The notes: generated from the letters alone by a model not told the origin. Positions 5,579-16,506 are shown, counted from the first letter of the stretch. The stretch: DNA of 64,000 nt from Candidatus Caldarchaeales archaeon (GCA_039630085.1 JBCNVM010000001.1:160001-224000); one strand, 5' to 3'. Translations and numbers: made by a program.

Positions 5579-6256
5579 TCACGGGTCCAGCTCGGCGCGG
5601 CCGACCAAGAGCCTCCCCGAGTAACCGTCCCAGGTGCTCGTCCATTCGAGGAGCTTCAGCCTCTCCCTGAAGGTCGGCGCCCAGAGGACCAGCGTCTCGT
5701 AGTCGCCTCCCTCGCCGTCGGGGTCGAACCCGAACCTCTCCGACCGGGCCAGGAGCTCCCTCAGCGCCTCCGAGTCGATCCTCCTGCCTATCCAGCTTCT
5801 GTCGAGGCCGTGCGCGGAGACCGAGGAGACGACGACCTCGTAGCCCCTCCTCACCGCCTCTCCGACGACCGATCCCGGGGGCATTCCCCAGTTTGGGGCG
5901 ACGTGTTCGAGCCCGACCTCCGCCAGCATCGCGTCCATCCTCGACTTCTGGTAAGCGCTCCTGATCACCCCCGTTACCACCCCCTCTAACCCCAGAGGCC
6001 CCGCGAGCCTCGAGAGGAACTCCCCGAGGGCCTCGACCTCCCTCTCCTTCCCCGGCGGGACCTTGACGAACCTCTGCGGCAGGCCCATAGAGCGGGCCTG
6101 TAGCGGCGTGACCTCCAGGCAGACGTCGTGGAAGGCGTAGGAGTGGGGCTCTGGCAGGACCGTGACCAGCTCGACGACCTCGTGTCCCGCGGCCAGCGCC
6201 TTCTCGAGGGCCAGCGTCGAGTCCTTGCCTCCGGTGAAGAGCGCGACGACCCGCAA
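5579..6256 (-). CDS. dph6: Diphthine--ammonia ligase (PP-loop ATPase)
   Basis: FTGGKDS PP-loop, SAYQKSR, GEGGDYETLV. Confidence 0.85.
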   Translation of the reverse strand: MRVVALFTGGKDSTLALEKALAAGHEVVELVTVLPEPHSYAFHDVCLEVTPLQARSMGLPQRFVKVPPGKEREVEALGEFLSRLAGPLGLEGVVTGVIRSAYQKSRMDAMLAEVGLEHVAPNWGMPPGSVVGEAVRRGYEVVVSSVSAHGLDRSWIGRRIDSEALRELLARSERFGFDPDGEGGDYETLVLWAPTFRERLKLLEWTSTWDGYSGRLLVGRAELDP

Positions 6257-6335
6257 CCCACCCGAGTCCCCTCTCCGCCGAGATAACGTTAGCAGCCGTT
6301 GCAGGCTTAAGTGCGAGCTGCTATTGGTCGCTGGG

Positions 6336-8834
6336 ATGAGGACGTATCCCTACGCGAGGCCCGGAAGGGACTTCGCCTATCCGGAGTACGGCTCGGTCTA
6401 CCCGCAGGACCGCGGCTACGCGGTCAAGCACGTCAGGCTTGAGCTCCGGATCGACTTCGATGGCAGGAAGCTCTTCGGCGAAGAGGAGATCACGGTCGTG
6501 AGGAACGGCGAGAGGCCGGGCCCGATCGTCTTGGACGCGTGCGAGCTCGAGATCAGGAGCGTCACGGTCGACGGCGCCGAGGTCCCATGGCACTACGACG
6601 GGAACTCGCTCTCGGTCGAGGTGCCTGGGAGGGAGGCGAAGATCAGGGTCAGCTACGTCGCGGTCCCGAGGAAGGGCTTCCACTTCGTCGGCCCGGACCA
6701 GGCCAACCCCGACAGGCCTCCCCACTGCTGGAGCCAGGGCGAGACCGACTACAACAGGTACTGGATGGTCCTCTACGACCACCCTTCGGTGAAGCAGACC
6801 TCCGAGCTGATCGTCCGTGTCCCGAGGGGGATGGTCGCGGTCTCCAACGGCGACCTGGTGAGGCACGAGACCCTCGACGGCGAGGAGGTCTGGCACTACA
6901 GGATGGACGTGCCCCACTCCGCGTACCTGATCAGCGTCGCGGCGGGTCATTTCGAGGTCATCGAGGAGGAGCACAGGGGCGTGAAGCTCCAGTACTTCGT
7001 CCCGAGGGGGTGGAAGGACAGGGCACACCTTTCCTTCGGGAAGACCGCGAAGATCGTCGACTTCCTCAGCGAGTACCTCGGATACCCGTACCCGTACAGG
7101 AAGTACGCCCAGGTTGCGGTCAGCGAGTTCATCTTCGGGGGGATGGAGAACACGACGGCCACGACGCTCACCGACCTGACCCTCCACGACGAGAAGGCCC
7201 ACGAGGAGTTCTCCAGCGACCCGCTAGTTGCCCACGAGCTCGTCCACCAGTGGTTCGGGGACCTGGTGACCTGCAGGGACTGGCCCCACATCTGGCTGAA
7301 CGAGAGCTTCGCCACCTACCTCGAGAACCTCTTCGTCCTCCACGACAAGGGCAGGGACGAGTTCGTCTACGAGGTCCTCAGGGACATGGACGCGTACCTC
7401 CAGGAGTACAGGGACAAGTACGCGAGGCCGATCGTCTCGAGGGTCTACAGGTACCCGACGGAGCTCTTCGACGGCCACTCCTACCCGAAGGGGGCCCTCG
7501 TCCTCAACGCGCTCAGGGGACTGATAGGCGACGGGGCGTTCAGGAGGGCGCTGGGCGAGTTCCTGAGGAGGTACGCGTATAGGGTGGTCGACACGGAGGA
7601 CTTCAGGAAGGTCGTTGAGGAGGTCTCCGGGAGGAACCTCGAGCTCTTCTTCGAGCAGTACGTCTACAACGCAGGGCACCCGGTCCTCTCGGTGGAGGAG
7701 GAGTACGACCAGCCGACTGGGACGCTGAAGCTCAGGTTCAAGCAGACGCAGGGCGAGGACTCGCTCCCCGAGTACTGGATACCGCTGAAGGTCCTAGTGA
7801 GGCTGAAGGGAGGGTACAGGGAGTTCAGGGTGGAGCTCAGGTCGAAGGAGGAGGTCGTGGCACTTCCGGTCCCGGAGAGGCCCGAGTGGGTCTGCATCGA
7901 CCCGCACCTCGAGTCGTTCGCGGTCCTCGAGAGGAAGCTCGGCGACGAGGTTTGGATCAGGATCCTCAGGGAGGACGAGCACACTTACTGCAGGCTCCTC
8001 GCGGCGAGGGCCCTTGGCAGGATAGGGAGCGCGAAGTCGATCGAGGCCCTCCACCAGGTCCTCACCGACGGCGAGGCCTTCTGGGGGCTCGCGGCCGAGG
8101 CTGCGAAGGCCTTGGGCGCGACGAGGAGCGAGATGGCGAAGGAGCGACTCCTCTCGGCGCTGAGGACGGTCAGGAGGCCGAAGGTGAGGACCGCGGTCTG
8201 CGAGGCCCTCTCGAACTTCAGGGGCAGGGACGTTGCGGAGGCCCTGAGGTTGGTCCTCGGGGACGCGAACGAGGGCTACTACACGAGGCAGGCTGCGGCC
8301 ACGTCGCTGGGCAAGGCGGGGGACGAGTCGGACATCGACGAGCTGACCGCTCACCTAGAGGACCCCTCGCACAACAACGCGATCACGATCGGTTGCCTGA
8401 GGGGCATGTCGGAGATCGGGGGCGAGAGGGCCCTCGAGGTCGTAATGAGGTACACGATGCGCGACAAGCCCAGCCACGTGAGGGCCGCGGCCGCTTCGCT
8501 CCTCGGCAGGTTCCCGGGGAGGAGGGAGGTGATCAGGAGGCTCGAGGAGCTCGCGTCCGACGAGAGCTACAGGGTGAGGAGGGCAGTTGTGGCGGCCTGC
8601 GCCGAGCTGGTCACGCCGAAGGTCCTCCCGATACTGAACAGGCTCGCTGAGTCGGACCCGTACGAGATGGTCAGGAGGGACGCGAGGGACGCCGCGGAGA
8701 GGGTCAGGAAGTCCCTCGAGCGCGGGACCGAGTACAAGGTCCTCAGGGAGGAGCTGGAGAAGGTGAGGGAGGAGAACAGGAGGCTCGTCGATAGGATGGC
8801 CGCGCTCTCGAGGCTCGTCGAGCTGAAGGGCTGA
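6336..8834 (+). CDS. pepN: M1 family aminopeptidase with C-terminal HEAT repeats
   Basis: GGMEN, HELVH...NESFA zinc motif, YPKGA; HEAT-like repeats and coiled-coil tail; ATG at 6336. Confidence 0.92.
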   Translation: MRTYPYARPGRDFAYPEYGSVYPQDRGYAVKHVRLELRIDFDGRKLFGEEEITVVRNGERPGPIVLDACELEIRSVTVDGAEVPWHYDGNSLSVEVPGREAKIRVSYVAVPRKGFHFVGPDQANPDRPPHCWSQGETDYNRYWMVLYDHPSVKQTSELIVRVPRGMVAVSNGDLVRHETLDGEEVWHYRMDVPHSAYLISVAAGHFEVIEEEHRGVKLQYFVPRGWKDRAHLSFGKTAKIVDFLSEYLGYPYPYRKYAQVAVSEFIFGGMENTTATTLTDLTLHDEKAHEEFSSDPLVAHELVHQWFGDLVTCRDWPHIWLNESFATYLENLFVLHDKGRDEFVYEVLRDMDAYLQEYRDKYARPIVSRVYRYPTELFDGHSYPKGALVLNALRGLIGDGAFRRALGEFLRRYAYRVVDTEDFRKVVEEVSGRNLELFFEQYVYNAGHPVLSVEEEYDQPTGTLKLRFKQTQGEDSLPEYWIPLKVLVRLKGGYREFRVELRSKEEVVALPVPERPEWVCIDPHLESFAVLERKLGDEVWIRILREDEHTYCRLLAARALGRIGSAKSIEALHQVLTDGEAFWGLAAEAAKALGATRSEMAKERLLSALRTVRRPKVRTAVCEALSNFRGRDVAEALRLVLGDANEGYYTRQAAATSLGKAGDESDIDELTAHLEDPSHNNAITIGCLRGMSEIGGERALEVVMRYTMRDKPSHVRAAAASLLGRFPGRREVIRRLEELASDESYRVRRAVVAACAELVTPKVLPILNRLAESDPYEMVRRDARDAAERVRKSLERGTEYKVLREELEKVREENRRLVDRMAALSRLVELKG

Positions 8835-8839
8835 AGGGC

Positions 8840-9148
8840 TCACCGGTCGATCGGGATCCTGTTGACGGCGCCGCAGTTGCCGCACGTGACCACCACGCAC
8901 CTCGTCCTACCCCTCTTCACCCTGAACCTGGAGCCCTCCGTGAACCTGTAGAGCGAGATGCACCTCCTGCAGATCAGCCTCGAGTACCTCCTCGGCATCC
9001 CGGTCCTCGTCCTCCTGCAGAGCTCGACCGCGTGTCTGACCGCGGCCCTCCTCAGGACCTCGTCGTCGGTGCGCAGGGCCAGCTCCATCAGCCTCTCGAC
9101 CTCCCTCAGGACCGTTCTGCTCCGCTCCCTCGCCGCGTCCCTGGTCAA
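8840..9148 (-). CDS. rnp4: Ribonuclease P protein component 4 (Rpp21/Rpr2)
   Basis: Helical N-terminus plus ICRRC...VVTCGNCG zinc ribbon; basic. Confidence 0.7.
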   Translation of the reverse strand: MTRDAARERSRTVLREVERLMELALRTDDEVLRRAAVRHAVELCRRTRTGMPRRYSRLICRRCISLYRFTEGSRFRVKRGRTRCVVVTCGNCGAVNRIPIDR

Positions 9149-9666: not shown

Positions 9667-10521
9667 CTACCTCCTCATGCGCTCGATCGTCTTCTCGACC
9701 ATCATCCCCGCCAAGTCGAAGCCCGTGACCCTGACGGTGTTCCTGAACTCGACGACCGCGTTCACCTCGCTGACGTAGAGCCTCCCGTCCGGAGACTCCA
9801 TCAGGTCGACCCCGAGAATTCCGCCGCCCATCGCGTCGCCGGCCCTTATCGTCAGGTCCACCAGCTCCCCGGTGAGCTCCGCGGGCTCGGCCCTGCCTCC
9901 GAGCGCCGTGTTGGTCTTCCACCTGCTGCTGTACCGGTAGATCGCGACCGGGACCTCTCCCCAGACGTAAAAGGCCCTGATGTCCCTCCCGGGCTTGTTC
10001 ACGAACTCCTGGATGTAGTGGACCTTGAAGTAGGGAGATGGCATCGACTCCCTGAAGTCGATGATGTCGAGCAGGTCGTCCTCGCTCAGGGCCCTCGCCA
10101 TCATCCTGCCCCAGCTCCCGAAGATCGGCTTCACGACCACCGGATACCCGAGCTCCCTAGCGGCCTCTACCGCCTTCTGCCTCGAGAAGGCCACGCAGGT
10201 CCTCGGGACTGGGACGCCGTTCGCCGAGAGCCTGATCGTCGTCACCAGCTTGTCGCCGCAGTCCCTGATCACATCGTAACGGTTGACCACCTCGACCCCC
10301 TCGCCCTCTAAGAGCGCCGCGCTGGAGAGGGCCCTGTAGAAGCTCACGCACCTCTCGAAGGCGAAGTCGACGCCGTCGGCGAAGCCCGCGGAGGAGTCCT
10401 CGACCTTCACGACCATCGAGGGCACGTAGAGCGGCACTAGCTCGTGGCCCCTCCTCCTAATCGCCTCGACGATCTGCCTCTCCTCGTCCCGGACGACGTC
10501 GTAGGCTATTCCTATCCTCAA
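9667..10521 (-). CDS. lysX: LysX/ArgX-type ATP-grasp ligase (RimK family)
   Basis: KPIFGSWGR, QEFVNKPGRDIR, WKTNTALGG, EVNAVVEF; directly downstream of lysW. Confidence 0.9.
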   Translation of the reverse strand: MRIGIAYDVVRDEERQIVEAIRRRGHELVPLYVPSMVVKVEDSSAGFADGVDFAFERCVSFYRALSSAALLEGEGVEVVNRYDVIRDCGDKLVTTIRLSANGVPVPRTCVAFSRQKAVEAARELGYPVVVKPIFGSWGRMMARALSEDDLLDIIDFRESMPSPYFKVHYIQEFVNKPGRDIRAFYVWGEVPVAIYRYSSRWKTNTALGGRAEPAELTGELVDLTIRAGDAMGGGILGVDLMESPDGRLYVSEVNAVVEFRNTVRVTGFDLAGMMVEKTIERMRR

Positions 10522-10858: not shown

Positions 10859-12112
10859 TCAGAACCTAAGGACGAGGCCCTTCTTCTCGAGGCTAATGGC
10901 CTCGAAGGGGATGGAGAGCTCCCTCGCGATCCTGTACGCCTCCGCGATCTCCTGAGCCGTCGGGTACCGGGCTATGTCGGAGAGCCTCGGGTCGAACTCG
11001 GGCGACGTCGGGTCGGCGAAGCAGTCGGGGTGGTACTGGTCCATGACGTTAACGAGGGTACCGGGCATATTCCTGGCGATCCACTCTAGGACCGGCCTCG
11101 TGCAGCACTCGACGTGGTTGGGCATCACGAGGTGCCTTATCACGATGTCCTCGCCCCACTCGTAGATCGCCCTGTGGTTCGCGGTCACGGTCTCCCAGTA
11201 CCAGGGAGTCCTCGCGAGCCTTATCGAGCACTTGTCGTTCCCGAACTTGAAGTCCGGGAGCCAGATGTCCACAAGCTCCCTGAGCAGCTCGAGCGTCTCC
11301 GGCGTCATGTACATGTTCGAGTTCCAGAGGATCGGGACGTTGAACTCGCCGTCGATCGAGTACCTCTCCCTCGGGAGCCTCCTCCACCTCAGGTAGTCGG
11401 GCTTCATCAGCCACATGTAAGCGAGGTCCTCCTTCTCCGGGACGACCTTCCCTAGCATCGATATCGCCTCGACGATCGTGTGGAGGTGGACGGTGGGCTC
11501 GCCGCCGACGAGATTGACGTTGTGGCAGCCCTCGACCCTCAGCTCCCACATCATCTTCGCGAGGAGCTCCGGCGTCACGTCGAGGCCGTTGTCCTTGTCC
11601 TTGCTGATGTCGCCGTTCTGGCAGAACCCGCACCTCATGTTGCAGGAGGTGAAGAAGACGGTCCCCGAGCCGAAGGTTCCCCTGATCGGGAGCTCCTCGC
11701 CGAGGTGGTGAAAGTAGCTGCTGACCTTCGAGGTCCTCGCGAGCATGCAGGTCCCGAGCTTCCCTCCCGAGACCCTGTCGACCCTGCACCTCCACCTGCA
11801 GAAGGTGCAGGACCTTAGCGTCCTCCTCACGATCTCGACCTTCAGGTCCATCAGCGACGGCGAGGCCTCCTCCAAGTCCCTCAGCCTAAGCACGCCCTCC
11901 CTCACCTCCCTCTGGAGAGACCTGAACTCCTCAGCCCGCCTCCTGTGCTCCCTCCAGAGCTCCTCGGTCGTCGACTCGGGCCCGAACTCCGCCGGTATCC
12001 TCCTGCAGATCAGGTACTTCGCCGGGAGCTCGTTGTTCGCGACCCTGTAGTACCAGTCGAGCCTCTCCCTTACCTCCTCTAGCTCCCAGATCCAAAGCGA
12101 TTGAAACGCCAT
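10859..12112 (-). CDS. Radical SAM protein, PflX family
   Basis: CTFCRWRC auxiliary motif, SGTVFFTSCNMRCGFCQN, DIWLPDFKFGN, IRHLVMPNH. Confidence 0.88.
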   Translation of the reverse strand: MAFQSLWIWELEEVRERLDWYYRVANNELPAKYLICRRIPAEFGPESTTEELWREHRRRAEEFRSLQREVREGVLRLRDLEEASPSLMDLKVEIVRRTLRSCTFCRWRCRVDRVSGGKLGTCMLARTSKVSSYFHHLGEELPIRGTFGSGTVFFTSCNMRCGFCQNGDISKDKDNGLDVTPELLAKMMWELRVEGCHNVNLVGGEPTVHLHTIVEAISMLGKVVPEKEDLAYMWLMKPDYLRWRRLPRERYSIDGEFNVPILWNSNMYMTPETLELLRELVDIWLPDFKFGNDKCSIRLARTPWYWETVTANHRAIYEWGEDIVIRHLVMPNHVECCTRPVLEWIARNMPGTLVNVMDQYHPDCFADPTSPEFDPRLSDIARYPTAQEIAEAYRIARELSIPFEAISLEKKGLVLRF

Positions 12113-12229
12113 TCCTTCCGGTCCTGCTACGCGTTCGTCCAATAAAGGAATTTCCTGCCCCACTAATATGTCAACGACTCCGAGCCCCGATGAGGGGCGG
12201 CTCTTCTCGTTTATCCAAAGCCCTCATTA

Positions 12230-12372
12230 GCGTATTGATCAATTGTCTCTCTATTCCCTCAACCGACCACTGTCCAATTGTGTAGACGATTGTATATTAT
12301 TGTATGTAGCATATTACAAGAATTACGTTTAATAATGCACTAAGTGTAATTTTTGTTGAGGGGAAGGGGGAA
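12230..12372 (+). promoter_or_regulatory. AT-rich divergent promoter region upstream of the flavoprotein operon
   Basis: Sharp AT enrichment; ATTGT at 12242, 12277, 12289, 12299; TTGTA-N10-TACAA at 12300-12319; TATA-like TTTAATA at 12328; purine-rich SD before ATG 12373. Confidence 0.6.
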
Positions 12373-13872
12373 ATGTCCCAAGGTCAGACCCTCAGCAGGA
12401 GAGCTTTCCTCCAGGGTCTGGCCGCAGGGGTCGTTGTCGGCGGTGTGGGCGTAGGTGGGACGCTGACGGCACTGCGAATGGCTGAGCCCGTTTACTGGAA
12501 GATGCCGGAGAGGTGGGACCTCGAGGCGGACGTCGTGATAGCGGGGTTCGGCGTGGCCGGCGCGTCCGCGGCGATCGAGGCGGCCGAGAACAAGGCCTCG
12601 GTCCTAGTCCTCGACAAGTCCCCGACGCCGGGTGGCAACAGCGTGATGTCCGGCGGCAACATGGGGGTCATTAACTCCTCGGCCCAGAGGGAGAAGAACC
12701 TCGTCATGGAGGTGGCCGCCTGGAACCGCAGCGTCACCCGCGTGATGAAGGAGACGCACTGGGAGCAGGTCTTCCCGACGGAGAGGGACATGAAGTACAT
12801 GGAGAACTGCGGCAAGGAGGTCGGAGACTGGCTGAGGAACTTCGGCATCGAGTACGAGCTGGTCATCCCGACGCTCATTAGGAACAAGGGCGGAGGTCCC
12901 GGCCTGACATCGACGCTCCAGAAGGCCGCCCGGGAGAAGGGAGCTAGGGTCGAGACGGAGTTCAAGGTCACCCAGCTCGTGGCGAGGCCCGACAACAACA
13001 TGGTTCTGGGCGTAGTCGGAGAGAAGGGAGGGAGCAGGCTGTTCGTTAAGGCGAGGAGGGGCGTTGTGCTCGCCACAGGGCCGTTCTCAGCCAACAAGGA
13101 AATGCTCAAGCTCCACAGCCCGATCGGATATCACGCGCTCCCGATCACGGCGGCGGTCAGCACGGGCGAGGGTCTGATGATGGCTCAGGCGCTGGGAGCG
13201 GCGGTCGCGAACCTCCACCACATCAGCGGGTTCCCGGCGATACCCAAGGTCAACGCTAGGTTCAGACCACAGGGGATCTCGGCGATCTTCGTCAACGAGA
13301 AGGGCTACAGGTTCGTGAACGAGGCGGAGCACTTCGAAGTCCTGAACGACAGGATCTTCTACCAGCCGGGGCACCGCGCGTGGCTGATCACGGACAGCGA
13401 GCAGCTGAAGAAGAGCACCGGCAAGGGGATCAGCACTGCCCTCTCCGAGGACCTGGCCAAGGAGGTCGAGCAGGGGATAGTGATCAGGGCGCCGACCCTG
13501 GAGGCACTAGCGGACGCAATCAAGGTCCACAAGGAGAACTTCCTGAGGACGGTCAGGACCTGGAACGAGTGGGCCAAGACGACCAAGCGCGACCTTGACT
13601 TCGGGAGGGCCGACTCGCCGGCGTTCACCTTCTCGCCGATAGAGAACCCGCCCTTCTACGCGGTGGAGCTGGTCCCGAGCATCTCGGGGACCAACGGAGG
13701 CCTAGTCGCGGACGGGGAGTCCAGGGTCATCAACGTCCACGGCAAGCCAATACCTCGCCTCTACGCAGCTGGTGACATCGTCGCGGGAGGCTTAATCTCG
13801 CACCTCGGCGAGGCCATATTCTTCGGGAGGATCGCCGGGAGGAACGCCGCAAGGGAGCAACCTTGGGCCTAA
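12373..13872 (+). CDS. Tat-exported FAD-dependent oxidoreductase (FAD_binding_2 / flavocytochrome c flavin-subunit-like)
   Basis: SRRAFLQG twin-arginine signal; DVVIAGFGVAG, GGNSVMSGG, GVVLATG, TNGGL, RLYAAGD. Confidence 0.9.
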   Translation: MSQGQTLSRRAFLQGLAAGVVVGGVGVGGTLTALRMAEPVYWKMPERWDLEADVVIAGFGVAGASAAIEAAENKASVLVLDKSPTPGGNSVMSGGNMGVINSSAQREKNLVMEVAAWNRSVTRVMKETHWEQVFPTERDMKYMENCGKEVGDWLRNFGIEYELVIPTLIRNKGGGPGLTSTLQKAAREKGARVETEFKVTQLVARPDNNMVLGVVGEKGGSRLFVKARRGVVLATGPFSANKEMLKLHSPIGYHALPITAAVSTGEGLMMAQALGAAVANLHHISGFPAIPKVNARFRPQGISAIFVNEKGYRFVNEAEHFEVLNDRIFYQPGHRAWLITDSEQLKKSTGKGISTALSEDLAKEVEQGIVIRAPTLEALADAIKVHKENFLRTVRTWNEWAKTTKRDLDFGRADSPAFTFSPIENPPFYAVELVPSISGTNGGLVADGESRVINVHGKPIPRLYAAGDIVAGGLISHLGEAIFFGRIAGRNAAREQPWA

Positions 13873-15350
13873 ATCCCCGTAAACAAGCATCGTTTTTTTA
13901 TTTTGTCCTTAATGTAACACTAGTGCTATTCATAGTATCGCATGGACTTCTGTACGGAGCTTCAGCACAACAGACCGTCATCAAGGCCTATAGGGCTGAG
14001 GTGGTGCCGCAGATAGACGGCGTCGTGACGGAGGGCGAATGGGACGACGTTCCCCTCTTCAGGGAGACCGTGACGAGGGCGCGGATCGCCTTCAAGCACG
14101 ACGGCCAGAACCTCTACTTCCTCGCTGTCTACGAGGACGCGAGCCCGAAGCCGATCGACTATTACGCGTTGGAGTTCGATCCGGACGGCGACCAAGCGCA
14201 CATGGGCAGCGAGGAGGTCCCGGACTACGGGATAATCGTCAGCGCGGTCTACGGGGAGAACCACGCGAGGGAGGCGGTCCTGCCGGGTGCGGTCAAGCCG
14301 ATACTCTACGAGGACCTGGGGCTGAGGACGACGGCCGTCGCGAGGATGTCCTACCGGGAGGGCAAGTTCGTCGTCGAGCTGAAGCGGCCCTTCTCCAAGG
14401 ACGAGAGGGGAATGATGGAGCTCTCGGTGGGTAAGTCGATCGGCATAGGGTTCGCGGTGGGAGAGTTCGGGATGGGGATAGACCACAGGGCCACCGACAT
14501 GTCGACGTACGTGCTCGCGATCGTCGACGAGCGGTACGCTGGCGAGCCGATCGCGGAGGCCTTCGACCTCTACGGGCTCGTTTACACGTACGGGCCCTAC
14601 GCCTGGCTCGCGGCCCTGGCCGGCGTCGTGGCCCACTTCGGCAGGAGGAGGGCCTGGAGGGCCCCGAACTACGAGCGGTGGACGTTCCTCGAGAGGCACC
14701 ACTGGTCCGCGAGGCTCTCCCACTGGATCAGGGTGGCCGTGCTCGCGGTCATGATAGTCACGGGGTGGGGCATCACGGTCAAGCAGGCGCCCCTCGGGGC
14801 CCTGACCAGGGACGTCCACATCTGGGTCGCATTCGTGATCCTGTTGGCGGACCTCCCGCTTCACATCTACTCGATGGCCAGGGGCGAGTACAGGCACCTC
14901 CTGATGATCAACAGGGACGACATCGAGGTGACGATCACGATAGCCAAGAACTTCCTCGGGCTGACGAGGGCCTACCCGCCGCACGCCGTCTACGACCTCG
15001 AGTCAGGGGACTACTACATGGGGAGGAAGTACTGCTCCCTGCAGAAGCCGCTCGGCTGGTTCTACTTCGCCTCGATGCTCCTCATGGGCCTGACAGGGTT
15101 CGCGCTGGCCTACCCGTCGCTGTTCCCGTGGGTCTTCGCGCTGATGGGGGGAGGGCTGAACGTGAGGGCCGTGCATCTGCTTCTGTTCTACCTCTTCACG
15201 GCCGTCTTCTTCGTCCACGTCTACCTCTCGCTGATCCCTGCTAACTGGAACAGGCTCAGGGCGATCGTGCTGGGGAGCTGCAGGGTGCCGGTGCTAACGG
15301 CCAAAGAGGCTAAGGCCCTCGAGGAGGTCGCGGAGGTTCCCAGATCCTGA
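13863..15350 (+). CDS. Membrane protein: DOMON-like heme domain fused to cytochrome b (FdhC/Ni_hydr_CYTB-like)
   Basis: Signal peptide; PQIDGVVTEGEW...DGQNLYF...VVELKRP DOMON/CBM9-like fold with AHMG and DHRATDM; TM region with RLSHW, DVH, LH, AVH..FVH histidines and GRKYCSLQK. Confidence 0.78.
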   Translation: MGLNPRKQASFFYFVLNVTLVLFIVSHGLLYGASAQQTVIKAYRAEVVPQIDGVVTEGEWDDVPLFRETVTRARIAFKHDGQNLYFLAVYEDASPKPIDYYALEFDPDGDQAHMGSEEVPDYGIIVSAVYGENHAREAVLPGAVKPILYEDLGLRTTAVARMSYREGKFVVELKRPFSKDERGMMELSVGKSIGIGFAVGEFGMGIDHRATDMSTYVLAIVDERYAGEPIAEAFDLYGLVYTYGPYAWLAALAGVVAHFGRRRAWRAPNYERWTFLERHHWSARLSHWIRVAVLAVMIVTGWGITVKQAPLGALTRDVHIWVAFVILLADLPLHIYSMARGEYRHLLMINRDDIEVTITIAKNFLGLTRAYPPHAVYDLESGDYYMGRKYCSLQKPLGWFYFASMLLMGLTGFALAYPSLFPWVFALMGGGLNVRAVHLLLFYLFTAVFFVHVYLSLIPANWNRLRAIVLGSCRVPVLTAKEAKALEEVAEVPRS

Positions 15351-15423: not shown

Positions 15424-16506
15424 TCAGCGCAGCCTCTTACCCTCGATGAACTCCTCGACCATCTCCCTCGCGACGTGGTCAGGGTACTGGACCGGCGGGG
15501 ACTTCATCAGGTAGGCTGAGGGCGAGTAGAGGACGCCTCCGACGCCCCTGTCCATCGCGAGCTTCACGCACCTGATCGCGTCGACAGCGACGCCCGCCGC
15601 GTTCGGCGAGTCCCAGACCTCGAGCCTGACCTCGACGGTGATCGGCGCGTCTCCGAAGAGCCTCCCCTCGAGCCTGATGTAGGCGACCTTCCTGTCCTGG
15701 AGCCATGGCACGTAGTCGCTCGGCCCTATGTGGACGCTCCCCCCGTCGACGGGCCGTCCGGACATCACGGAGGTCACGGCGCCGGTCTTGGACCTCTTCT
15801 TCGACGAGAGCCTCTCCCTCTCGAGCATGTTCAGGAAGTCCGTGTTCCCTCCGAAGTTCAGCTGATACGTCCTGTCGACGACCGCGCCCCTGTCGCCGAA
15901 GAGGGTCACGAGGGACCTGTGGAGGATCGTCGCACCAACCTGGCTCTTGATGTCGTCCCCGACGATCGGGACCCTCCTCCTCTCGAACTCCGACTGCCAG
16001 GCGGGGTCGCTCGCGATGAAGACCGGGATCGCGTTCACCATTCCGGCCCCTGCCTCGAGGGCCGACCTCGCGTAGAACCTAGTGGCCTCCTCGCTCCCGA
16101 CGGGGAGGTAGTTGATCAGCACATCTGCTCCGGCGCTCTTCAGCGCGTCCGCCACGTCGACCGGCCTTCCGGGGTGCTCGGGGACCTCGTCCCTCAGGTA
16201 CCTCCCGAGGCCGTCCAGCGTCGGGCCCCTCATCACCTCGACGCCCAGCTTCGGGACCTCCGCGAACCTCAGCGTGTTGTTGGGAGGGGAGAAGATCGCC
16301 TCTGAGAGGTCCTTCCCGACCTTCCTCGCGTCGACGTCGAAGGCCGCGACGAACTCTATGTCGCCCACGTGATATCCCCCGAGCCTGACGTGCATCAGCC
16401 CCGGGACCCGCTCGCCGTCATCGGCGTTCGCGTAATAGTGGACTCCTTGTACGAGGGCCGAGGCGCAGTTGCCCACGCCGGCTATAGCGACCCTGACCTT
16501 CGGCAC
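15424..16506 (-). CDS. ino1: Myo-inositol-1-phosphate synthase
   Basis: [35 protein letters not shown]. Confidence 0.95.

Follow-up and report, generated by a model that had tools for sequence, protein, structure and literature searches.

Organization of the locus

Two overlapping genes lie on the plus strand at positions 12373 to 15350 of the window, which is the whole 64,000-nucleotide stretch of archaeal DNA that was analyzed. The upstream gene encodes a flavoprotein (FP) and the downstream gene a multidomain protein that joins a putative heme domain to a membrane cytochrome b (CB). The following features were assigned:

12164..12372, plus strand: AT-rich intergenic region 5' of FP, read from the sequence as a putative promoter or leader
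12373..13872, plus strand: FP, FAD_binding_2 flavoprotein of 499 amino acids, predicted to be exported (open reading frame, Pfam and PDB matches)
12373..12483, plus strand: twin-arginine signal or anchor of FP, residues 1-37, with SRRAFL at residues 8-13
12544..12561, plus strand: GxGxxG dinucleotide-binding motif of FP, G58-G63
13863..15350, plus strand: CB, 495 amino acids with a TTG start; signal peptide, EbdC-like outer domain, extra membrane helix, and predicted diheme cytochrome b
13863..13967, plus strand: Sec-type signal peptide of CB, residues 1-35, ending ASA/QQ (the slash marks the presumed cleavage site)
13968..14537, plus strand: EbdC/NxrC-like (EB_dh, DOMON-superfamily) beta-sandwich of CB, a putative mono-heme-b domain
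14568..14648, plus strand: extra membrane helix TM0 of CB, residues 236-262 (a helix in the model; topology predicted)
14673..15308, plus strand: FdnI/HyaC-type four-helix cytochrome b of CB, predicted to be diheme (Pfam, structural alignment, His positions)

Both open reading frames match exactly the positions that an earlier note on this DNA had given for two overlapping genes. The shared 10 nt (13863..13872) suggest translational coupling, and this overlap is kept in the orthologous loci L001-L006. The TTG start of CB is supported because in these loci the orthologs have an ATG at this very place, with the same overlap of 10 nt; one database gene call (P0001, 475 amino acids) begins 20 residues downstream of the start of the 495-residue protein. 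Upstream of FP, a TATA-like tttaataa is found at 12328-12335, a G-rich stretch immediately precedes the ATG, and the GC content falls to 0.594 in the bin 12001-14000. The genes flanking the pair encode a radical-SAM protein (divergent) and inositol-1-phosphate synthase (convergent). No conserved third gene was found, as the radical-SAM neighbor recurs only in L001 and the other orthologous loci are flanked differently. The view that the pair has no ferredoxin-type or CxxCH partner was borne out for both proteins and the flanks: no ferredoxin-type gene adjoins the pair there, and neither FP (one Cys) nor CB (two Cys) contains a CxxCH or Fe-S motif. The stretch was found whole or in part in four DNA runs from hot-spring metagenomes.

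The flavoprotein

FP matches Pfam FAD_binding_2 at 1e-40, and its SRRAFL motif is followed by a hydrophobic stretch, in agreement with the twin-arginine FAD protein described earlier. The top NCBIfam match is TIGR01813 (209.2 bits, below the cut-off of 285.45), and among PDB matches found by phmmer over residues 52-495 are 1qo8 (8e-50) and the urocanate reductase UrdA (6t85, 1e-42). The orthologue clade of FP (P0012-P0019) spans 55-95% identity, and the next matches reach at most 37%. An RR motif is present in all 12 flavoprotein homologs with a complete N-terminus from the loci L001-L013, and TatC is encoded in the host genome (134.9 bits), so that motif and genome together predict FP to be a Tat substrate. 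In alignment A2, neither G58 nor G63 varies. Neither a multiheme c domain nor an FMN_bind match was detected in FP.

At the positions aligned with H365, R402, H504, and R545 of the fumarate reductase Fcc3, FP carries F287, F321, S438/G439, and H477, respectively. The numbering His365, Arg402, His504, and Arg545, which we take to be that of the Fcc3 active site, agrees with counting along the 1d4c alignment. Likewise, the 'ERRD' of UrdA (6t85) pairs with 'EHFE' in FP. To judge from these alignments, FP is without the active-site residues of the fumarate and urocanate reductases, and its FAD is read as noncovalent because no His occupies the SdhA-type site. Since the active site of the FP clade is unlike that of any characterized member, it probably marks a new substrate of hot-spring Aigarchaeota and, for the split form described below, of peat and soil Nitrososphaerales.

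Passages of a preprint (10.1101/2022.12.26.521950) describe two active-site arginines in UrdA, present the signal-peptide-bearing members of the superfamily as mostly respiratory reductases, and mention several exported PF00890 reductase clades without the two canonical arginines. The closest characterized sequence relatives of FP (Fcc3, UrdA) are reductases too, which speaks against an oxidative role.

The outer domain of the cytochrome protein

CB starts with a predicted signal peptide whose hydrophobic segment covers residues 7-34, and its homologs are alike in this respect. In an AlphaFold2 model of CB (pLDDT 78), residues 37-224 superimpose on EbdC (2ivf_C) with a Z of 19.4 and an rmsd of 2.3 Å over 174 residues, and on NxrC (7b04_C) with a Z of 18.4 (VIA-align); the cytochrome domain of cellobiose dehydrogenase (1pl3_A) reaches a Z of 9.8. 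An EB_dh-type fold is also indicated by Foldseek (E 1.8e-7) and by the Atlas (TM 0.78), where the look-alikes of the domain are EB_dh gamma subunits. At the sequence level, Pfam EB_dh (PF09459) stays below threshold (21.3 bits vs a cut-off of 33.3, E 3e-4), TIGR03477 gives no match at E 0.01 or better, and Pfam DOMON does not match CB. The outer-domain profile aligns by hhalign with seven bona fide DMSO_red_II_gam proteins at a probability of 95.4%. Of the DOMON-like domain claimed in the earlier note, the fold relationship thus stands, and 'DOMON-like' is presumably acceptable as a superfamily label, but DOMON proper is not matched and EB_dh is the closer relative; the most fitting name for the domain is EbdC/NxrC-like (EB_dh, the heme-b gamma subunit of type II molybdoenzymes).

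Sequence searches of solved structures with CB alone and with profiles A1 and A3 returned no EbdC-type chain, only a weak match to HyaC (E 0.071) and chance matches. The outer-domain profile also detects true EB_dh proteins and CbsA, the latter at a probability of 95.7% over 43 columns; TIGR03154, the CbsA equivalog, does not match CB. Six weak matches of the profile (E 1e-9 to 1e-10, open frames of ~196-499 amino acids) were rejected as family members, and L025, the one among them that was examined, is CbsA (TIGR03154, 790.8 bits).

Candidate Met and His ligands, as suggested earlier, are present: M114 (nt 14202), H208 (14484), and M213 (14499) are invariant, and K78 (14094) is invariant or nearly so. 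M114 aligns with the sole invariant Met of the seven true gamma subunits. The alignment of the gamma-subunit profile stops short of the Lys column; the CB segment at that place contains H208 and M213, and K78 lies elsewhere in the CB sequence than the gamma-subunit Lys segment. The heme b of EbdC is described as Met/Lys ligated in a passage of PMC8840923, by analogy with which we infer that M114 is an axial heme ligand. Heme binding by the outer domain as a whole is likewise a prediction, since the second ligand appears to differ from the family Lys and the profile alignment ends before it. The potential of a Met-ligated heme may be too high for menaquinone reduction, which would speak against an oxidative direction.

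The membrane part of the cytochrome protein

Pfam Ni_hydr_CYTB (PF01292) matches CB with 52.2 bits, above its cut-off of 30.1. Residues 271-482 superimpose on FdnI (1kqf_C) with a Z of 13.2, a value near chance level for helical bundles that is to be read jointly with the PF01292 match; the alignment with 6g94_A gives a Z of 9.8. Four His residues are located on helices I, II, and IV, namely H287 (nt 14721), H319 (14817), H438 (15174), and H452 (15216), the last two being 14 residues apart, and their spacing is the canonical one. In the profile alignment to HyaC, H287, H438, and H452 pair with HyaC His residues, and H287, H319, and H438 are nearly invariant. The His-bearing cytochrome b of the earlier note is hence confirmed at the level of family and His pattern, and sequence and model together predict the C-terminal part of CB to be a diheme four-helix cytochrome b of the FdnI/HyaC type. 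Ahead of it, TM0 ends in the invariant H258 and an RRR run, with positive charges after the helix, from which we infer that TM0 leads the chain inward across the membrane, so that the N-terminus of the cytochrome b lies in the cytoplasm. A conserved long loop (residues 340-393) is placed on the cytoplasmic side, and both FP and the outer domain of CB are predicted to face the outside.

Linkage, distribution, and host

The pairing that the earlier note took for one module recurs elsewhere. In each of the 13 genome loci, a flavoprotein homolog adjoins the outer-domain gene, and the same holds for all five metagenome loci in which both flanks are long. Over all 52 metagenome loci, a flavoprotein lies on the available DNA in 21; of the 16 whose upstream flank measures at least 1500 nt, it is found upstream in 11 and downstream in two (L037 and L059), and L034, L047, and L056, each with at most 1.1 kb of downstream sequence, show none. 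The linkage persists over ~30% sequence identity and occurs in the gene orders flavoprotein-outer domain-anchor, outer domain-anchor-flavoprotein, and divergent. In the split forms of Nitrososphaerales (for example, L010), the outer domain and the cytochrome b are encoded by separate genes, the flavoprotein is still linked, and the outer domain carries a Ser/Thr-rich stalk and a C-terminal anchor. In a quick tree, the flavoproteins linked to the fused form and those linked to the split form are not united in a single clade. Among the loci examined, no Mo-bisMGD alpha or Fe-S beta genes stand beside the outer-domain gene. FAD_binding_2 was found in none of 17 long proteins matched by the outer-domain profile, and no EB_dh or cytochrome b domain in three long FP relatives, both being a weak type of evidence.

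The outer-domain family has very few members and a patchy distribution. CB has eleven relatives, all from Aigarchaeota or Nitrososphaerota, and the family occurs in four of 14 genomes of the host's family; a search of three further genomes of the genus did not detect it. The host genome (~90% complete) contains no members of the Cytochrom_C and Cytochrom_C_asm families, and it encodes COX1 and a Rieske/cytochrome b pair.

Proposed electron transfer and alternative readings

FP and CB may together make up a single membrane-bound enzyme at the outer surface of the archaeal membrane, with FP being exported folded, FAD bound, via Tat. Its substrate, which would be neither fumarate nor urocanate, would be oxidized outside, and the electrons would pass three noncovalent b hemes: one in the outer domain, with Met114 and probably His208 as ligands, and two in the FdnI-like bundle, with H319/H438 as the outer and H287/H452 as the inner pair. 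This wire would end close to the cytoplasm, at a quinone site, and the reduction of quinone inside would complete a redox loop like that of formate dehydrogenase-N or hydrogenase-1, which would feed the organism's aerobic chain. As a whole, with heme binding, docking, topology, and direction all predicted, this oxidative FP-CB complex is our tentative choice, somewhat short of an even chance. A heme-b wire running in whichever direction is probable. The earlier note had drawn the flow from quinone to FAD; the direction from FAD to quinone is at least as likely and, on balance, slightly more so.

Run in reverse, electrons would pass from quinol through the cytochrome b and the EbdC-like heme to FAD and an external organic acceptor, which would make the pair an accessory reductase of anaerobic respiration; we consider this possible, though rather doubtful. 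Thiosulfate reductase PhsC, a member of Ni_hydr_CYTB, works from quinol to acceptor in this way, but FdnI and HyaC are electron-input modules and most such subunits reduce quinone. The best characterized relatives of FP are the fumarate and urocanate reductases already named (1qo8, 6t85), yet FP has other residues in place of the Fcc3 proton-donor Arg and substrate-binding Arg/His. According to passages of 10.1101/2022.12.26.521950, an exported enzyme of PF00890 is as a rule a respiratory reductase, and several reductase clades are without the two canonical arginines. The patchy, accessory distribution (4/14 family genomes) would fit an optional electron acceptor; on the other hand, the organism has an aerobic chain, and since a Met-ligated b heme usually has a higher potential than FAD, the last step from heme to FAD would probably be uphill.

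It is improbable that the outer domain holds no heme and acts as a CBM9-like ligand module or docking scaffold, so that FP would pass electrons directly to or from the outer heme of the cytochrome b, or use a soluble acceptor. CBM9 structures do match the domain strongly (Z 14.6, 14.5, and 13.9), but its heme-binding relatives score higher (19.4 and 18.4 vs 14.6). Pfam EB_dh falls under its cut-off and solved structures gave no sequence-level match to the domain, whereas the profile detects true EB_dh proteins and CbsA, and in the Atlas the domain resembles EB_dh gamma subunits. Moreover, the family Lys does not appear to be conserved at the aligned end, but the invariant H208 and M213 sit at the expected place of the second ligand and the invariant Met is aligned with that of the gamma subunits.

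Slightly less probable still is that FP and CB form no electron-transfer complex and are adjacent through co-regulation or a shared pathway (for example, with FP using O2 or a soluble acceptor and the cytochrome another partner): no FP-CB interface was obtained by modeling (FP 38-499 with FAD, heme, and outer domain 36-236 scored 0.00 without controls, a result that carries no weight on either side of the binding question), a fusion of flavoprotein and outer domain did not turn up among the 17 and three long proteins, and L034, L047, and L056 are without a flavoprotein upstream, but these three have short downstream sequence on the side where L037 and L059 carry theirs, both products are predicted to be exported, the 10-nt overlap is conserved, and the linkage is kept over ~30% identity, three gene orders, and partner fusion or fission.

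Comparison with known systems

Exported FAD_binding_2 enzymes exchange electrons by way of FMN-binding domains, multiheme c domains, or Fe-S subunits. Known partners of EbdC-like heme-b subunits are molybdoenzymes and, in Sulfolobales, Rieske/cytochrome b or Fox complexes. If the proposed FP-CB complex is real, the flavoprotein would be a third type of partner for EbdC-like heme, joined with an FdnI-like cytochrome b, and it would illustrate how extracytoplasmic redox enzymes are assembled in archaea that have no cytochrome c maturation. More broadly, we see about even chances that the pair represents an archaeal respiratory module in which a Tat flavoenzyme with a new active site and substrate is linked to quinone by b hemes only, in organisms free of c cytochromes, the EbdC/CbsA-like domain serving as a portable adaptor for at least two divergent flavoprotein lineages and two anchors (in one case an FdnI-like cytochrome b, in the other a small membrane protein that bears His and belongs to no family). 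As the unit comprises two genes in ~3 kb, it is directly testable by expression. The suggestion that the pair had not been characterized before agrees with full-text literature searches, in which no description of a DOMON/EB_dh-cytochrome b protein with a flavoprotein partner was found; the sole DOMON paper that surfaced (PMC8805035) concerns an MtrA-DOMON c cytochrome.

Like FP, the flavocytochrome c3 fumarate reductases Fcc3/Ifc3 of Shewanella (1qo8, 1d4c) and UrdA (6t85) have the FAD_binding_2 catalytic fold; they act outside the cytoplasm and bind FAD noncovalently, as is predicted for FP. The tetraheme c domain of Fcc3 and the FMN-binding domain of UrdA are absent from FP, whose electron partner would instead be a b-heme membrane protein.

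EbdC of ethylbenzene dehydrogenase (2ivf_C) and NxrC (7b04_C), both extracytoplasmic, are the best structural matches to the outer domain of CB and share the Met column. Their partner is a Mo-bisMGD/Fe-S alpha-beta pair and that of CB would be a flavoprotein; the Lys ligand of the gamma subunits does not appear to be conserved in CB at the aligned end, where His208 and Met213 are found; and the CB domain is, unlike EbdC and NxrC, fused to a membrane cytochrome b. With FdnI, the gamma subunit of formate dehydrogenase-N (1kqf_C), and HyaC, the cytochrome b of hydrogenase-1 (4gd3_A), CB shares the four-helix bundle, predicted to be diheme in CB as well, the four His residues, and the spacing of 14 in helix IV. 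CB differs in adding an N-terminal membrane helix and a putative outer heme domain in one polypeptide, in its long loop at residues 340-393, and in that it would serve a flavoprotein without an intervening Fe-S subunit.

That extracellular EbdC-like b cytochromes take the place of c cytochromes in archaea is an earlier idea (CbsA, FoxC); the flavoprotein partner appears to be new. As described in passages of PMC13741234 and PMC5461723, CbsA/CbsB and FoxC/FoxD of Sulfolobales each combine an extracellular, glycosylated EbdC-like mono-heme-b protein with a membrane protein, and CbsA and FoxC stand where bacteria use c cytochromes. Their layout of a Ser/Thr stalk and a C-terminal anchor is shared by the split outer-domain forms. 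CbsA is part of a Rieske/cytochrome b complex, FoxC is part of an Fe(II)-oxidation cluster, and no flavoprotein is paired with either of them; the relation of CB to CbsA is distant, the 43-column profile match being the only link.

The working principle proposed for FP and CB is found in fungal cellobiose dehydrogenase, an extracellular flavoenzyme that passes electrons from its flavin to a DOMON-fold heme b; a Met/His ligand pair as in that enzyme is plausible for the outer domain of CB. The flavin domain of cellobiose dehydrogenase belongs to the GMC family, not to FAD_binding_2, and the enzyme is secreted, soluble, and without a membrane link, and its flavin domain is fused to the cytochrome domain, whereas FP is a separate polypeptide; the likeness is one of analogy, not membership. 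If our reading is correct, FP and CB would constitute a prokaryotic counterpart of this hand-over from flavin to DOMON heme.

Gene organization and the flavoprotein

The earlier note had reported two overlapping genes, and both ORFs were found, on the same strand, exactly where it had placed them. They encode a flavoprotein predicted to be exported (FP) and a membrane fusion protein (CB):

10859-12163, minus strand: radical-SAM gene, divergent flank
12373-13872, plus strand: FP, 499 aa
13863-15350, plus strand: CB, 495 aa, TTG start
15424-16506, minus strand: inositol-1-phosphate synthase gene, convergent flank

The FP and CB ORFs overlap by 10 nt and form a two-gene operon, because they are flanked by the divergent radical-SAM gene and the convergent inositol-1-phosphate synthase gene. 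The spacer 5' of FP is AT-rich and carries a putative TATA-like element. The TTG start of CB is supported because orthologous loci carry an ATG at the equivalent overlapping position; one database gene call for CB (P0001) starts 20 residues downstream of the TTG. Two further minus-strand ORFs, one for a protein of 102 aa that contains two C-x2-C pairs (8840-9148) and one of 284 aa that by reading alone has a RimK/LysX-type ATP-grasp look (9667-10521), appear unrelated to the pair.

FP belongs to the FAD_binding_2 family (Pfam, 1e-40), with a GxGxxG motif (residues 58-63) and a twin-arginine motif, S-R-R-A-F-L (residues 8-13). The closest solved structures are the flavocytochrome c3 fumarate reductase 1qo8 (8e-50) and the urocanate reductase 6t85 (1e-42). 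None of the curated NCBIfam cut-offs was reached (209 versus 285 for TIGR01813), and FP has a single cysteine and neither a haem c motif nor an FMN-binding domain. The active-site positions of flavocytochrome c3 (Fcc3), which we take to be His365, Arg402, His504, and Arg545, were mapped by counting along the 1d4c alignment, and the columns were checked in an alignment of 42 sequences. Here, FP carries F287, F321, S438/G439 (together at His504), and H477. The Fcc3-type active-site residues are thus replaced, and FP was therefore ruled out as a fumarate or urocanate reductase. According to a preprint by Little et al. (10.1101/2022.12.26.521950), the two arginines are the mark of the fumarate/urocanate type, and further reductase clades of the superfamily also lack them, so that their absence from FP leaves the direction of electron flow unsettled. 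Among 8000 candidates scored, 751 were related to FP at E 1e-30 or better. FP itself falls in a compact clade made up of eight clusters (55-95% identity) from Aigarchaeota, Caldarchaeum, and Geothermarchaeales, beyond which identity drops to at most 37%.

Fold and topology of the membrane protein

CB matches Ni_hydr_CYTB above the Pfam cut-off and EB_dh below threshold. The AlphaFold2 model of CB, for which 11 sequences were used (mean pLDDT 78), consists of a signal-like helix, a beta-sandwich (the outer domain, residues ~38-225), a membrane helix (236-262), and a helical bundle (281-470). In VIA-align comparisons, the sandwich is closest to EbdC (2ivf_C; Z 19.4, rmsd 2.3 A over 174 aligned residues) and NxrC (7b04_C; Z 18.4), followed by CBM9 modules (Z 13.9-14.6) and the cytochrome domains of cellobiose dehydrogenases (Z 9.6-9.8), and the bundle resembles the cytochrome b subunits FdnI (1kqf_C; Z 13.2) and HyaC (Z 9.8). 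Foldseek likewise returned 2ivf_C (1.8e-7) and 1kqf_C (1.1e-4), and the ESM Atlas look-alikes of the outer domain are EB_dh and steroid-C25-dehydrogenase gamma subunits. We infer that the signal peptide is cleaved after ASA, which would leave the sandwich outside, and that the extra helix runs inward and ends in H258-F-G-R-R-R, with the bundle starting from the cytoplasm as in FdnI.

Beyond the four canonical ligand candidates, CB has an invariant H258 (window position 14634) and H279 (14697), a nearly invariant H374 (14982), and a strongly conserved R-K-Y-C-S-x-Q-K stretch in the loop of residues 340-393, all predicted to lie on the cytoplasmic side. We know of no counterpart of these residues in FdnI; they could be part of a quinone-binding site or hold an additional cofactor.

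Candidate haem ligands

M114, H208, and M213 of the outer domain are invariant among relatives in which this domain is fused to cytochrome b and those in which it is a separate protein, and K78 is invariant or nearly so. PMC8840923 gives Met/Lys as the haem b ligands of EbdC. For comparison, seven Thermoproteota proteins above the TIGR03477 cut-off were taken, whose sole invariant Met lies in PYICMG and whose sole invariant Lys lies in GLKATS. Profile-profile comparison with the outer domain (probability 95.4%, E 1.9e-8, 124 columns) places Met114, in the HMGS of CB, on the invariant PYICMG Met. The alignment stops at a common FAVG/FAVW motif ahead of the Lys column, and past this motif CB carries the invariant H208-x-A-T-D-M213. 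The ranges aligned by VIA-align suggest that H208 may lie approximately at the place of the EbdC Lys ligand, presumably Lys201. By analogy with cellobiose dehydrogenase, our best guess for the ligation of the outer domain is the candidate pair Met114/His208. In the bundle, the candidate ligands are H287 (helix I), H319 (helix II), and H438 and H452 (helix IV, 14 residues apart), and profile alignment pairs H287, H438, and H452 with His residues of HyaC.

Conservation of the pair

One genome per species was scanned for relatives of CB, and in 13/13 of the resulting loci a flavoprotein homologue adjoins the CB relative. In seven of them (L001-L007), FP (70-87% identity) precedes the fused form. 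In the six others (L008-L013, from Nitrososphaerales and Gagatemarchaeum), the match is limited to the outer domain, which is a separate protein of at least 261 aa with a Ser/Thr-rich stalk and, where the sequence is complete, a C-terminal anchor; its gene adjoins that of a Tat-signal flavoprotein with 26-38% identity to FP. Every flavoprotein homologue whose N-terminus is complete (12/12) has the twin-arginine motif; in L011 the N-terminus is cut by the contig end. In L010, a Nitrososphaerales locus, the order is divergent flavoprotein, outer-domain gene, separate Ni_hydr_CYTB gene (31.8 bits, above cut-off), and UbiA; just upstream of this cluster lie a second, very divergent FAD_binding_2 gene (L010:1503-3200, Pfam 1.9e-64) and then a 220-aa ORF without family (L010:3343-4005).

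The available DNA includes a flavoprotein in 21 of 52 metagenome loci. Where at least 1500 nt are available upstream (n=16), it lies upstream in 11, downstream in two (L037 and L059), and is absent in three (L034, L047, and L056), each with at most 1.1 kb of downstream DNA. When at least 3000 nt downstream are available as well, a flavoprotein is found in 5/5. The conserved co-occurrence that the earlier note proposed to look for is thus borne out in both the genome loci and the long-flank metagenome loci.

The membrane partner was assessed in 25 loci that extend 900 nt or more downstream: it is a cytochrome b (fused or separate) in 10, a membrane protein of ~208 aa in 10, and neither in five. 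The ~208-aa protein, which replaces cytochrome b 3' of the outer-domain gene at about every second split-form locus (L013:6923-7591, L009:6786-7415, L059:4818-5435, L043:4786-5415, and others), matches no Pfam or NCBIfam family. It has conserved His residues, with W-H-x6-H-(T/S)-G in the first helix, and may serve as membrane anchor or haem carrier in place of the cytochrome b.

Some copies appear damaged: the CB orthologue in L007 (6001-7400) matches in two frames (6001-7155 and 7116-7400), the database relative P0008 is missing its N-terminal domain and is out of register at its end, and the gene for the small membrane protein in L008 (6916-7371) stops early. Either errors of assembly or the decay of an accessory module could account for such copies.

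Distribution and host context

Searched against 1.84 billion representatives, the outer-domain profile retrieved 88 proteins with an E-value of at most 1e-3, of which 35 reach 1e-10 and 29 reach 1e-30, with true EB_dh proteins in the weak tail. Within the phylum, 14/401 genomes match at E 1e-8 or better, namely seven (including the genome studied here) at 1e-94 or better, one fragment, and six weak matches. The one weak match tested (L025) was rejected as a family member: it is CbsA (TIGR03154, 790.8 bits; L025:1489-2913, minus strand) with CbsB next to it (L025:566-1492, minus strand), and L026-L030, likewise from other Thermoproteota, may have this arrangement too. The outer domain is present in 4/14 genomes of the same family and 3/17 of the neighbouring family and was not found in the three other searched genomes of the genus; this patchy presence makes FP-CB an accessory module. 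In a quick, midpoint-rooted tree with SH-aLRT as the sole support measure, the flavoproteins of the fused form are one clade (support 100), and those of the split form lie across a branch with support 98, beside three proteins of unknown context. The tree suggests, but does not prove, that the haem adaptor works with more than one flavoprotein lineage.

The genome (GCA_039630085.1; 1.41 Mb, ~90% complete) contains a single copy of CB, TatC, a haem-copper oxidase subunit I (contig 11), and a Tat-signal Rieske protein adjoining a 446-aa cytochrome b (G000:C12:18268-21525). It gave no match to Cytochrom_C (PF00034) or to PF01578, the family for cytochrome c assembly; 9/14 control genomes match both. 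An O2-respiring organism that lacks c cytochromes would have to rely on b-haem carriers on the outer side of the membrane, and CbsA and FoxC are described as such carriers in Sulfolobales (PMC13741234, section 23; PMC5461723). The outer-domain family profile reaches a CbsA (probability 95.7%, 43 columns), and CbsA in turn weakly matches the DMSO_red_II_gam model (3.7e-11), which gives a sequence link between the EbdC family and the extracellular b cytochromes of archaea.

Proposed mechanism and direction

FP would be exported and dock at or close to the putative haem domain on the outside of CB, the two forming one enzyme in which three predicted b haems of CB would connect FP to a site for quinone next to the inner haem. 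We consider it probable that such a three-haem-b wire operates, in either direction. An oxidative (dehydrogenase) role can be proposed tentatively: FdnI/HyaC-type subunits usually serve electron input, the flavin of cellobiose dehydrogenase hands its electrons to a haem in a DOMON fold, an aerobic chain is present in the host, and the reductase-type arginines are gone from FP. Set against this, the nearest characterised relatives of FP are reductases, respiratory reduction is the general role of exported proteins in this superfamily, and an accessory distribution suits an optional electron acceptor; we rate a reductive role as only slightly less likely than the oxidative one. An outer domain without haem is improbable, given the invariant M114 and H208, and so is mere adjacency of FP and CB, in view of their conserved linkage.

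Comparison with known systems

The earlier note had called the complex possibly undescribed, and this view holds for the systems compared here: every part of FP-CB belongs, or is related, to a known family, and the combination matches none. Unlike flavocytochrome c, FP lacks c haems and has a different active site; unlike a type II molybdoenzyme gamma subunit, CB lacks Mo/Fe-S partners; and the pair is neither CbsAB nor FoxCD. In the main text of openly accessible papers, searched in full, a pairing of a flavoprotein with an outer-domain/cytochrome b protein was not found. FP-CB is classed among the extracytoplasmic respiratory flavoenzymes.
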